Source: Arenicellales bacterium
GTDB taxonomy: Bacteria; Pseudomonadota; Gammaproteobacteria; Arenicellales; JAJDZL01
Assembly: GCA_965214785.1 (NCBI GenBank)
Contig: OZ243975.1
Coordinates: forward strand, 708,914 to 772,913
Direction of reading: 5' to 3'
DNA length: 64,000 bases
Position numbers and translations under genes: made by a program. The notes beneath the pieces were generated by a model, which was not told where the DNA came from, searched no databases, and was given only the letters and a program-made list of their open reading frames with translations. Below are positions 8,043-21,110 of this stretch, piece by piece. Each line of letters starts with the position of its first letter. The first letter of the stretch is position 1.

Positions 8043-8387
8043 GGTTTACAACGATTCAAAATTCTTTCTTTTCAACTTCTATTGTCGGATGACACTTGCA
8101 CTCATAGTCCGTCAATTGTCGCATATCAGTGCTACGCTTGCCACGGATACAGGGGATGATCGTGCAGGGGGAGTACGATAACACAAGATAATGTTCAATT
8201 GACGAAATACTGCGGAACAAATGGGCTCATGAACTGTATTAGCCGAACATTATTCAAATAGTCAATGCGTTAATATTCAGTGAACATACGAACTGTAAGA
8301 TTACGTAAAGTGAATTGTTACAAGAGGCAGTGAATACTTTGTGCTGACTTCACCATGGCCATTCGCAGTGAGGCAGCGCACTGAGCA

Positions 8388-9878
8388 TCAATCAACGGTA
8401 TATTGAGCAACCATATCGACTGCCTTTTTCCATCTCCTCAATAACCTTTTACGTTCATTGCAATCCATCTGCGGTTCAAAAACGCGGTCAAGCTGCCAGT
8501 TATTTTTGATTGAATTCAAAGATGAAAACAACCCGATGTGCAGTCCCGCCAGAAAAGCAGCGCCTAACGCGGTAGTTTCGGTATTGGTTGGCCGATCGAC
8601 CGGGAGATTGATTACATTACAAAGAAACTTGCAGAACCAGTCGTTGTTCGCCATTGCGCCATCGATTCGCAGACGTGCGACGGTACTGCCGTCGCTACGA
8701 ATCGCTTCAAGCAAGTCTGCTGTTTGGTAAGCAACTGATTCCAAGGCCGCGCGGGTGATTTGTGCTTTTCCGGTATCCCTCGTTATTCCGAAAACTGCAC
8801 CACGCGCGTTTGGCAACCAGTGCGGTGCACCTAGTCCGGTTAGCGCAGGCACCAGATAAACCCCACAGTTGTCATTGAGTGAAGCAGCGATATCCGCAGA
8901 TTGCGCCGCGTCTTCGAAAAAATTCAATTCGTCCCTTAACCACTGCATTGCTGCTCCTGCCACAAAAATTGATCCTTCCATCGCATAACAAGTCTGTCCG
9001 TTGAGACGGTAACCAACCGTAGATAGCATCTTGTGTTGAGACTTGATCAATTCACGGTCCGTATTGATTACAACGAAACATCCGGTGCCATAGGTGCTTT
9101 TGACCATGCCGGGCTCAAAGCATGCTTGTCCAATCAAAGCTGCTTGCTGATCACCTGCAACACCGCAAATCGGTAGAGTCTGGCCCAATATCAAAGCGTC
9201 GCTAACACCGAAGTCGTCTGCACTGTTTTTCACTTGAGGCAAACACTGTTCAGGAATGGAAAACAAACGCAGCAGATCTGGATCCCAACGCTGGTTGCGG
9301 ATGTCAAATAACATCGTTCTTGAGGCATTGGTGGCATCGGTCACGTGGTTTGCTCTACCAGTCAAATGCCAAATCAAAAAGGTGTCGACCGTTCCGAACA
9401 TCAGTTCGGCGCGCTCGGCACGTTGTCGCACTCCTTCGACATTGTCCAGAATCCATTTAAACTTGGTAGCTGAAAAATAAGGGTCTGGGAACAGTCCTGT
9501 CTTATCTTGAATTAACGGAATCAATCCATCGTGTTGTAGGGAAGCACAGTAGGATGCTGTTCGTCGATCTTGCCATACGATTGCGTTATAAACGGATTCG
9601 CCTGTATTGCGATCCCACACTACAGCGGTTTCGCGCTGATTTGTAATTCCTATTGCTTTGACAGCACCGGGCAAACTTTCCGCGTATTGCAATACTGCAC
9701 GAGCCACCTCGAGTGTCGTTCCCAAAATATCATTCGGGTCGTGTTCAACCCAGCCATCGTTTGGAAAATGTTGAGCAAACTCTTTTTGCTCAGTGTGGCG
9801 AACCTGTCCGTCCTGATCAATCAGGAGTGCCCGAGAACTGGTTGTACCCTGATCTATGCTTAGAATATAGGATTGCAT
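8388..9878 (-). CDS. glpK: Glycerol kinase
   Basis: 496 aa. The N-terminus YILSIDQGTTSSRALLID and the GITNQRET motif are typical of FGGY-family GlpK. Confidence 0.95.
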   Translation of the reverse strand: MQSYILSIDQGTTSSRALLIDQDGQVRHTEQKEFAQHFPNDGWVEHDPNDILGTTLEVARAVLQYAESLPGAVKAIGITNQRETAVVWDRNTGESVYNAIVWQDRRTASYCASLQHDGLIPLIQDKTGLFPDPYFSATKFKWILDNVEGVRQRAERAELMFGTVDTFLIWHLTGRANHVTDATNASRTMLFDIRNQRWDPDLLRLFSIPEQCLPQVKNSADDFGVSDALILGQTLPICGVAGDQQAALIGQACFEPGMVKSTYGTGCFVVINTDRELIKSQHKMLSTVGYRLNGQTCYAMEGSIFVAGAAMQWLRDELNFFEDAAQSADIAASLNDNCGVYLVPALTGLGAPHWLPNARGAVFGITRDTGKAQITRAALESVAYQTADLLEAIRSDGSTVARLRIDGAMANNDWFCKFLCNVINLPVDRPTNTETTALGAAFLAGLHIGLFSSLNSIKNNWQLDRVFEPQMDCNERKRLLRRWKKAVDMVAQYTVD

Positions 9879-10092
9879 TGAAATTTTCGTTTGTCAAAGC
9901 GTTGTTTCTGAGTCTGTATCAATGATATTCGTTTATATCTTGAATTCCGAAGAGTTAAATCGCATAGGATGACACGATTCTATTTCATCATCGTCAGAGT
10001 GTCAGGAAGTGTATTGGACGCGGAATATTTCAACAGTACAAGCGTCAAGGTAATACAATAAGCGCCTGAGTTTTGATGGACTAATACTGACA

Positions 10093-20666: not shown

Positions 20667-20710
20667 ATGAATTATTGATTCGGTTGCTACAGAGACTAAA
20701 TGTACTGACT

Positions 20711-21070
20711 TCATCGCTTGTGGTATCCATAACTAAAGCAAATTCGAGACAAGTTTGCAGCTATTTTTTCTTGTTGCAATGTTGGATTAACACACTTTGC
20801 GATGGTGATGCGCACGCTCATTGTCACTCCAATCGAGAACCGTTGTGAACTTTCTTCCGCAAAACCCGCTGTAGCGCACTGTTGACCTGCATTGACACAC
20901 AATGCGGTTTTCTCCAGGCGACTCGGCATTGCTAACCGCCCAGCACCATCGCAATACGTAGAACACAAGAAAATTTTTTGATTTATCACACGTGCAAACA
21001 GTAAAATTGCACCCTTATTATTTCTCACATGGAAACTTGCAGTTTGTCCGGGTGCCTTTTGGGTCGGCAT
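20711..21070 (-). CDS. Hypothetical Cys-containing ORF; possibly spurious
   Basis: 119-aa ORF with no recognisable family. It overlaps the predicted rpsB promoter/leader and an opposite-strand 61-aa ORF (20663-20848). Confidence 0.2.
   Translation of the reverse strand: MPTQKAPGQTASFHVRNNKGAILLFARVINQKIFLCSTYCDGAGRLAMPSRLEKTALCVNAGQQCATAGFAEESSQRFSIGVTMSVRITIAKCVNPTLQQEKIAANLSRICFSYGYHKR
20978..21007 (+). promoter_or_regulatory. Candidate sigma-70 promoter for rpsB-tsf
   Basis: TTGATT (20978-20983), an 18-nt spacer, then TAAAAT (21002-21007). It lies about 100 nt upstream of the rpsB ATG, leaving a leader of the kind known to mediate S2 autoregulation in gammaproteobacteria. Confidence 0.3.
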
Positions 21071-21110
21071 TCTGCACCATGGTGGTTAAACCCGAACTGG
21101 AGTAAACTTC

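Follow-up and report, generated by a model that had tools for sequence, protein, structure and literature searches.

A lineage-specific islet between map and rpsB in an Arenicellales bacterium carries a giant putative surface-protein gene with an in-frame high-GC mosaic block

Results

We analysed a 64-kb stretch of the genome of an Arenicellales bacterium (contig OZ243975.1; the whole stretch is called the window below, and positions are counted from its first letter) in which an islet of accessory genes, among them a giant surface-protein gene of mosaic structure, separates the core genes map and rpsB. The window has a guanine plus cytosine (GC) content of 46.9%, the closest named relatives of its genome are Arenicellales metagenome-assembled genomes (MAGs), and the bacterium is probably sponge-associated. 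The start codon of map, which encodes a type I methionine aminopeptidase on the minus strand (7266-8042; Pfam Peptidase_M24, E 1.4e-54), ends at 8042 and the ATG of rpsB lies at 21111 (21111-22292, plus strand; Pfam Ribosomal_S2, residues 9-224), so that these core flanks enclose a spacer of 13,068 bp. Five open reading frames (ORFs) lie within it: glpK for glycerol kinase (8388-9878, minus strand), a gene for a secreted ASST-like beta-propeller protein (10093-12834, plus), the giant gene for a surface protein of 2327 aa (12902-19885, plus), a small gene for a stand-alone protein of 216 aa (20016-20666, plus) and an ORF of 119 aa (20711-21070, minus). All five had been listed in a preliminary description of the window, and all are present, although the last is not a gene. 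The flanks also have the layout given there, with dapD (3465-4286), glnD (4552-7227) and map on the minus strand, divergent from rpsB, tsf and pyrH on the plus strand; dapD, glnD, tsf and pyrH have clear Pfam assignments.

The map-rpsB junction was compared among related loci retrieved by means of the map protein. A set with one genome per species yielded 80 loci and metagenome contigs yielded 80 more; altogether 165 related loci were fetched, and both map and rpsB were present in 102. The gap between the two genes was at most 600 bp in 99 of the 102 (median 260 bp), and neither glpK nor the ASST-like, giant or small gene was found near the junction in these related loci. The best matches among the one-genome-per-species set were Arenicellales MAGs (map 72-77% identical), followed by Candidatus Spongiihabitans and Poriferihabitaceae MAGs, while in the metagenome-contig scan a glnD query returned nothing and a map query no relative closer than 72%. 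Searching with the map protein identified relatives at three levels of identity, namely about 100% (a 2.96-Mb contig), 99% (contig L001) and 81% (L170, a JGI contig). Among the non-conspecific relatives found, L170 is the closest; its gene order matches that of the window throughout alr to bamA, and its spacer of 374 bp is empty. The rpsB-proximal 133 nt of this spacer together with the start of rpsB align to window positions 20978-21169 (85.6% identity over 194 nt). L001 is conspecific, as its flanks are 96.5-97.7% identical to the window at the DNA level and its gene order is the same, islet included. The 2.96-Mb contig, also conspecific, probably carries the islet too, judging from the joint appearance of its map protein (P0278) and a giant-gene homolog (P0001) in homology searches. 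Past rpsB, to about 31 kb, the ORFs of the window keep the core order annotated in L001 and L170.

These comparisons support the earlier proposal that accessory DNA was inserted into a normally tight map-rpsB junction by an unclear mechanism, given the short gaps in 99 of 102 loci and the empty site in L170. The proposal would have been refuted had close relatives all carried the genes there with native composition; the islet was found in conspecific contigs only, and the arrangement is specific to one species-level lineage.

Three loci depart from the short spacer, among them L009 and L066. L009, an Arenicellales MAG, has 1.66 kb of small ORFs between map and rpsB (L009 8342-10000), which by eye are Phd/YefM-like, RelE/ParE-like and HTH-XRE-like, with a VapC-like fragment, and thus of toxin-antitoxin type. 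L066, a Rhodanobacteraceae MAG, holds an unrelated 5-kb insert (L066 425-5490) with an 816-aa protein and an ORF resembling extracytoplasmic function (ECF) sigma factors. Because both loci hold other inserts at this position, the site between map and rpsB takes cargo repeatedly.

The inserted DNA lies between about 8190 and 20977 and measures at most 12.8 kb, in agreement with the roughly 12.7 kb of accessory DNA estimated previously. It occupies what in other genomes is a divergent promoter region of 200-400 bp. Its right limit is set by the ancestral rpsB promoter-like site (TTGATT-18-TAAAAT) and a conserved 5' leader of about 100 nt (20978-21110, plus strand), recognised by a promoter scan and the alignment to L170. 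The leader is also conserved in L005, L006 and L009, and both promoter and leader were left intact to the right of the islet. A search of positions 7000-22500 against Rfam gave no match at E ≤ 1, the leader included; this leader may be the form that the S2 autoregulatory leader takes in the lineage. At the left border, positions 8043-8189 are a probable remnant of the ancestral map-proximal intergenic region, as suggested by a weak 17-nt match to L170 at 8173-8189 (88%, E 0.79) that lies 131 nt from the map start compared with 137 nt in L170; alignment of the relatives' spacers to this border gave nothing beyond that collinear 17-mer.

The absence of an integrase, transposase, tRNA or flanking direct repeat, remarked on previously, was confirmed by domain searches, ARAGORN and a shuffled border test. 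Pfam and NCBIfam detected no integrase or transposase domain in the five spacer ORFs, ARAGORN no tRNA or tmRNA in the whole window, and the longest word shared by the two borders had 9 nt, well within the range of shuffled sequences (mean 8.5, maximum 13), so that the short direct repeats sought there do not exceed chance. Tandem- and inverted-repeat searches returned nothing that accounts for the borders or for the compositional block described below, and positions 8043-21110 contain no further ORF of at least 110 aa with a family match.

Base composition had been called atypical over much of the region, which holds only for a block within the giant gene (13436-16302). GC at third codon positions (GC3) is native in glpK (0.465), the ASST-like gene (0.452) and the small gene (0.410) when compared to flanking genes (0.42-0.45). 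Within the giant ORF it is about 0.44 over codons 1-178, 0.82 over codons 179-1133 and about 0.44 again over the remaining 1,190 codons, with maximum-likelihood changepoints at nt 13436 and 16300 (log-likelihood ratio 181), and GC of the window climbs to 0.65 across 13.5-16.3 kb. Amino-acid composition cannot explain the GC of the block, because the shift sits at synonymous sites. A tetranucleotide analysis, like the sliding GC profile, confined the extreme signal to the block (z up to 23), with glpK native (z < 0.2) and the ASST-like gene (3-4.4) and 3' half of the giant gene (5-9) mildly raised.

The block, an in-frame segment of about 2.9 kb on the plus strand, is a patchwork 91-97% identical to alleles of bacteria with 63-71% GC. 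Calculated per 300 nt, DNA identity was 97% to L088 (14200-14500), 96% to L087 (15100-15400) and 95-96% to L002 and L003 (15700-16000), and the longest exact match to L088, from a genome of 70% GC, was 257 nt, equal in length to the longest match with the conspecific L001. Under stringent scoring, no match of at least 84% to a high-GC locus extends beyond 13085-16302, and position 16302 is the exact end of three such matches. By comparison, the giant gene outside the block is 62-69% identical to the high-GC loci in DNA; when the ASST-like gene is taken together with the low-GC 3' portion of the giant gene, the range is 62-71%, with 77% in a single conserved stretch. The same incongruence is apparent in the proteins, with nearest relatives differing between the block and the rest of the gene: the block is 55-62% identical to the positional orthologs P0003 and P0001 and 70-75% to high-GC-type proteins, whereas the remaining 1,190 residues are 93-96% identical to the orthologs and 52-61% to the high-GC proteins. 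Composition changes, sharply and in frame, where the high similarity to foreign alleles gives out. The giant gene is therefore a mosaic with two defined breakpoints, and the import from high-GC bacteria is recent. The right breakpoint lies in an FN3-type segment conserved across homologs and the left one in a conserved 'TDGVTLS..ALTLTELGSS' segment, both of which are plausible anchors for homologous exchange.

The block region also varies within the species. In comparison with L001, the first passenger domain is replaced (window 13102-13450 is without a match in L001), a module of 1.5 kb is present or absent and other segments are divergent, with identity dropping to 73-75% at 14500-15100. The low/high/low GC pattern recurs in four independent contigs of low-GC genomes, with differing block contents. 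A reverse pattern was observed in L087, from a genome of 63% GC, where GC3 dips to 0.44-0.54 at L087 10301-10600 within a giant gene otherwise at about 0.9; the dip coincides with 90.6% identity to window 13085-13557. Low-GC modules may accordingly also move into high-GC hosts, such that exchange runs both ways.

The ASST-like and giant genes form a two-gene unit with non-coding ends (10028-19959, plus strand), delimited by homology to a second chromosomal locus in related genomes of 46% GC. In L085 (1932-10794) and L086 (1500-10803), the unit recurs with an AAA_16 gene on one side and the gene for NAD-specific glutamate dehydrogenase (NAD-GDH) on the other, and its homology to the window extends from 10028 to 19959. 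This copy lacks most of the ASST-like gene (window 10703-12823) and has a high-GC block too; in L086 its giant gene is broken up into ORFs of 1375 and 1443 aa. Across the block, L086 (46% GC outside the gene) is 91-98% identical to the window, with 95.9% identity over 14156-19959 and a longest exact match of 309 nt. A promoter-like site was found at 10030-10059, but promoter-like sites were not in excess in the scanned region (11 compared to a shuffle mean of 9.7). Since its composition is native and its DNA is about 65% identical to the high-GC versions, the unit would have been resident in the lineage of the window for a long time. Gene conversion between paralogs may spread imported modules.

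The giant protein has 892 homologs, with He_PIG, cadherin and fn3 among their domains. In five contigs from genomes of 63-71% GC, the giant gene is compositionally native (GC3 0.82-0.91 throughout), lies less than 10 kb from mobile-element genes in all five and usually has an ASST-like gene upstream. Four of the five come from the European Nucleotide Archive (ENA) sample that is also the source of L001, and the fifth from another sample. The contigs of 63-71% GC are ERZ25070917 ctg121763, ctg125740, ctg125448 and ctg121020 and ERZ24894576 ctg49704c. Immediately 3' of the giant gene, L002 carries HTH_17, TraL, TraE, TraK, TraB, TraV and TraC (TraC 39% identical to a sphingomonad plasmid TraC) and L003 the same series of type IV secretion system (T4SS) genes; in both, the giant gene is co-oriented with and immediately upstream of this F-type cluster. 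TrwC, TrwB, TraG and insertion sequence (IS) elements occur near the giant gene in L004, a tyrosine integrase, ParB, RadC and DUF2201 in L087, and two tyrosine integrases in L088. The two-gene unit thus belongs to a family that is cargo of integrative or conjugative elements in bacteria of 63-71% GC. The genes expected of an integrative conjugative element (ICE), for a T4SS, a relaxase or coupling protein and an integrase, are absent from 8043-21110, and T4SS genes from the entire window, which holds ICE-type cargo and not an ICE.

Some features of these high-GC contigs are recorded here in their own right. In L004 (3672-10000), the giant gene is broken by a transposon-like set (rve integrase, AAA_22, AAA_25). 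Upstream of the cassette in L002 (1177-6496) lie an OLD-TOPRIM ATPase and a UvrD helicase, Gabija-like by domain content, and a TacA/GNAT toxin-antitoxin pair. An ORF of 216 aa that follows the giant gene in L002 was considered as a counterpart of the small gene of the window and rejected, as the two did not align at E ≤ 100.

The giant protein itself begins with an extension of about 45 aa, followed by a hydrophobic Sec-type signal read from the translation, RLFRNVMTGLLALLIAATWMSGAQAQ, that ends in AQA. Its passenger region gave Calx-beta, weak fn3 and weak LapA-like matches, the Calx-beta domain (residues 1694-1791; 17981-18274, plus strand) being the clearest (PF03160; E 4e-10 with the full-length protein as query, 5.5e-13 with the segment), and no pertactin- or AIDA-type passenger match. 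The C-terminal domain of 522 aa (residues 1806-2327; 18317-19885, plus) ends in FEAIARW, with a terminal aromatic residue, and is 54-64% conserved in the high-GC homologs. An AlphaFold2 (AF2) model of this domain, built with eight sequences and of low confidence (predicted local distance difference test, pLDDT, 43), has a 26-residue helix (residues 2-27) followed by about 20 beta strands. The Foldseek matches listed (E up to 6.5e-3) are all outer-membrane beta-barrels, including OprD/Occ, MOMP, TamA, LptD and BtuB, with 18-strand porins as the best, at TM-scores of 0.13-0.25 only. Autotransporter models of Pfam and NCBIfam failed to recognise the C-terminal 527 aa at relaxed limits (E ≤ 1 or E ≤ 0.1), and the domain had no PDB sequence match by phmmer or profile search and none on 72,556 plasmids. 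The earlier label of a 7-kb autotransporter therefore fits the architecture and not a family, since no Pfam or NCBIfam family model and no PDB sequence matches the C-terminus. These features suggest an autotransporter-like surface protein outside the classical family, with a putative barrel anchor that is possibly larger than the classical one, and its most likely role would be that of an adhesin.

The 913-aa ORF upstream matches Pfam Arylsulfotrans (PF05935; 61.6 bits compared to a cut-off of 24.2) over model positions 161-373 of 374 (protein residues 549-773) and no NCBIfam model. By eye, it has a hydrophobic signal-like segment, KTAFLCSALSAALAASLSSA, so that the description as a secreted ASST-like protein was appropriate; ASST activity would be a presumption from the domain name. 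In L002 and L004, the gene that precedes the giant gene shares 52-53% identity with it, and L004 and L087 align with its N-terminal domain. Its start codon is uncertain and may be the ATG at 10130 or the TTG at 10324, as called in L001. Within the 5' part of the ORF is the sole long homopolymer of the window, a C10 tract at 10212-10221 (plus strand; codons Y-P-P-P-A). The tract is C9 in L001, L085 and L086, which breaks the upstream frame, with the gene called from the later TTG. The C9/C10 difference may reflect ON/OFF switching by strand slippage, or else an error of long-read sequencing in a homopolymer.

The earlier label of GlpK as glycerol kinase is correct, as the protein scores above the equivalog cut-off of TIGR01311 (662.7 bits compared to 590.35; residues 4-491) and above that of NF000756 (700.4 compared to 498). 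The gene is intact in the window, but the copy in L001 (5488-6978) stops in frame at codon 198 and is a decaying pseudogene in that strain. The two copies differ by 58 substitutions in 1491 nt without indels, corresponding to 41 synonymous and 14 nonsynonymous codon changes.

The small gene had been called an orphan, which is refuted by 304 homologs at E ≤ 1e-3 that form a family of proteins of about 200 aa. A homolog with 56% identity adjoins trpBA and an IS, and both glpK and the small gene are unlinked to the ASST-giant cassette elsewhere. The suggested PD-(D/E)XK likeness stands with regard to motif and topology, with no family match and only weak fold matches. Residues E33, E39, D81 ('RADLV'), E109-x-K111 ('IEVKR') and D121 are invariant in 39 sequences, and the AF2 model (pLDDT 88.9) predicts helices at 33-46 and 118-131 and strands at 54-60, 79-85 (with D81), 104-112 (with E109 and K111) and 138-144. 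In our own reading of the model, the core would be alpha-beta-beta-beta-alpha-beta, which is the PD-(D/E)XK arrangement. The top BFVD match was a viral PD-(D/E)XK nuclease (E 0.04, probability 0.75, TM-score 0.41) and the best PDB match an unrelated protein (E 0.04). Pfam, NCBIfam and PADLOC yielded no family for the small protein, and PADLOC nothing for the ASST-like protein or GlpK.

The doubts already attached to the 119-aa ORF were justified, as its codon-position pattern and its overlap with the conserved rpsB promoter and leader indicate that it is non-coding. It differs from L001 by nine substitutions, distributed 2/6/1 over codon positions 1/2/3 (1 synonymous and 7 nonsynonymous changes), compared to 1/2/9 in map and 11/2/45 in glpK. 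The ORF is not called in L001 and has no family match.

Two further observations concern the core genes around the islet. Between 47000 and 49400, GC is lower (0.39-0.44) and both GC and AT skew are strongly negative; minus-strand ORFs occur at 46217-47137 and 48313-49371 among otherwise plus-strand core genes. The S2 protein encoded by rpsB has 393 aa, with an acidic low-complexity C-terminal tail of about 170 residues beyond the S2 domain. S2 is also long in L001 (393 aa), L170 (384 aa) and L009 (348 aa), and the acidic tail was read in the window and L009. The C-terminal extension may be a trait of this Arenicellales group.

Discussion

Our results are best explained by a lineage-specific composite islet that includes a resident two-gene unit, the giant-gene passenger of which recombined with high-GC alleles, and we consider this account probable. 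The islet looks composite and not recent, consisting of glpK, the ASST-giant unit and the small gene, because its composition is mostly native, glpK of L001 carries a nonsense codon and the ASST-giant unit recurs alone elsewhere. Stepwise accretion in a permissive divergent-promoter site would be the most economical account of its origin, given the lack of scars and the different cargo at this junction in other lineages. The cassette would be an old arrival in the lineage, or else one derived from a low-GC source. DNA with high-GC alleles would subsequently have entered cells of this species, by a conjugative route in our proposal, and undergone homologous recombination with the gene already present, at conserved anchors that code for domains, such as the FN3 segment that ends at 16302. 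A paralogous second locus could have been an intermediate through gene conversion. The product would be a variable adhesin, with the passenger region as a recombination hot spot. The GC anomaly is thus the result of later recombination inside one gene and not of the arrival of the islet, a caution that an anomaly of this kind within an islet need not date or explain that islet.

Several points weigh against this account. The best high-GC matches cover sub-segments only and no single sampled donor matches the whole block, which L086 matches throughout at 91-98%; because of this, the last step of transfer may have been intragenomic or between strains. All sequences derive from metagenome assemblies and are known at the assembly level. 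The age of the insertion is loosely bounded, as the available genomes include no relative with a map identity between 81% and 99%, and no mobility gene, tRNA or repeat at the borders marks its mode. At the protein level, the C-terminal model has a pLDDT of 43 and no autotransporter or porin sequence model matches, so that the anchor and the adhesin role are conjectural.

The likeliest alternative is that the block came directly from a paralogous giant gene in the same genome or species, at a locus of the L085/L086 type, by gene conversion, with the high-GC modules having entered earlier and the gene of the window never having recombined with conjugative DNA itself. The continuous similarity of L086 to the window favours such a source, including at 14500-15100, where L001 falls to 73-75%, as do the 309-nt exact match and the presence of high-GC blocks in all four low-GC copies. 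Yet sub-segments are still 95-97% identical to present genomes of 63-71% GC, with 257 nt exact, which requires recent import regardless, and a paralog alters the last step only and not the origin. Moreover, the second locus is known from L085 and L086, while the data for the window cover 64 kb. We regard this as a real possibility that falls short of even chances. A second alternative, that the islet is ancestral and tight junctions elsewhere reflect repeated loss, is consistent with its mostly native composition, the lack of visible insertion scars and its occurrence in L001 and probably the 2.96-Mb contig. However, it would require many independent, precise deletions, and short spacers without the four genes extend across many gammaproteobacterial lineages, L170 and, by our tally, all Arenicellales MAGs being counted there; we reject it as very unlikely. 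A single recent island of 12.7 kb from a high-GC donor, suggested by the previous emphasis on atypical composition, by GC of 0.65 over 13.5-16.3 kb and by the role of ASST-giant homologs as mobile-element cargo in high-GC bacteria, is slightly less credible again. It conflicts with native GC3 (0.41-0.47) in glpK, the ASST-like gene, the 3' 3.6 kb of the giant gene and the small gene, with the modest similarity of the ASST-like gene and the 3' part to high-GC versions, with an anomaly bounded sharply and in frame inside one ORF and with the lack of linkage of glpK and the small gene to the cassette elsewhere, and was therefore rejected.

Two explanations of the block as something other than imported DNA fare worse. 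A chimera of homologous genes created during metagenome assembly deserves consideration, as the family is abundant in the sample of the related contigs and its members share conserved segments by which an assembler could be misled. An ORF of 6,984 nt that stays open across both junctions, the four independent low-GC contigs with the same pattern and different contents, and a fine patchwork in place of one foreign contig end led us to reject it; in addition, L001 (118x by its name) is low-GC on both sides into core genes. We judge a chimera highly improbable. The block codes for repeated modules with recurring motifs such as NW..PQTVTVT, and its GC3 could in principle have arisen in situ, either by selection on codons or by GC-biased gene conversion between repeats within the gene. 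Long or tandem repeats are absent, however, and the GC3 change coincides with the limit of similarity. Above all, the near-identity to high-GC genomes in which this composition is native is so hard to reconcile with an origin in situ that we reject it and assign it practically no weight.

In summary, the recombined giant gene represents a very clean natural case of in-frame module exchange across more than 20 GC points, in which the imported DNA has not yet ameliorated. The nearest relatives suggest that the community is a sponge microbiome; if it is, the case offers a concrete, testable way for unrelated symbionts to exchange and vary surface proteins used in contact with the host or with other cells. 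The analysis also flags a large protein family with a membrane anchor outside current domain models. We tentatively extend this to a broader proposal that we think rather unlikely to hold as a whole, namely that the ASST-giant cassette is an uncharacterised class of conjugative-element adhesin defined by a Sec signal, a Calx-beta/FN3/Ig passenger and an unrecognised large barrel. Its modules would pass both ways between distantly related bacteria, from 47% to 71% GC, that share a host-associated community, in frame at conserved anchors, and the protein would act in mating or aggregation, with phase variation through the C9/C10 tract. A mating or aggregation role is suggested by the F-type T4SS genes that directly follow the cassette.

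Integration hot spots, or islets, between conserved core genes are a general feature of bacterial pangenomes, and the islet described here is of this ordinary kind, in which accessory genes accumulate at permissive core-gene junctions. It resembles them in its species-specific cargo between syntenic core genes, with an empty site in relatives and other cargo elsewhere, and differs from genomic islands in that it has no integrase, tRNA, direct repeat or island-wide compositional signal and its contents seem to stem from at least three unrelated pieces. Mosaic surface-protein genes created by interspecies recombination are well known from the surface antigens of Neisseria, pneumococcal pbp and pspA, and Helicobacter vacA. 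The giant gene shares with them in-frame blocks between conserved segments, sharp breakpoints, incongruence among segments and hypervariability among conspecifics. The classic cases involve congeners of similar composition and DNA uptake by transformation, whereas the partners here are about 20-25 GC points apart and at least the high-GC copies reside on conjugative elements.

The giant protein combines traits of several known groups of surface proteins. Like the type Va autotransporters (Ag43, AIDA-I and pertactin), it has an extended Sec signal, a large passenger and a predicted helix followed by a beta-rich C-terminus with a terminal aromatic residue. In contrast to them, it matches neither PF03797 nor the NCBIfam barrel models, its beta-rich C-terminus comprises about 420 residues with about 20 predicted strands compared to about 270 residues and 12 strands, and its passenger consists of Calx-beta, FN3 and Ig-like modules instead of a beta-helix. 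LapA, SiiE and MpIBP are giant Calx-beta/Ig-repeat adhesins secreted by type I secretion systems (T1SS), and the giant protein is similarly very large, modular and rich in Thr, Ser and Val, with Calx-beta and LapA-like repeats (a weak Pfam LapA match). These adhesins lack an N-terminal Sec signal and end in RTX repeats and a T1SS signal, whereas the giant protein has a Sec-type signal and a beta-rich C-terminus, with no T1SS genes nearby. Finally, enterococcal aggregation substance is an adhesin and aggregation factor carried as cargo of a conjugative element. The gene in the window is chromosomal and has no T4SS genes within 64 kb, but its homologs in L002 and L003 immediately precede an F-type T4SS gene cluster in the same orientation, and in this they resemble the adhesins of conjugative elements.

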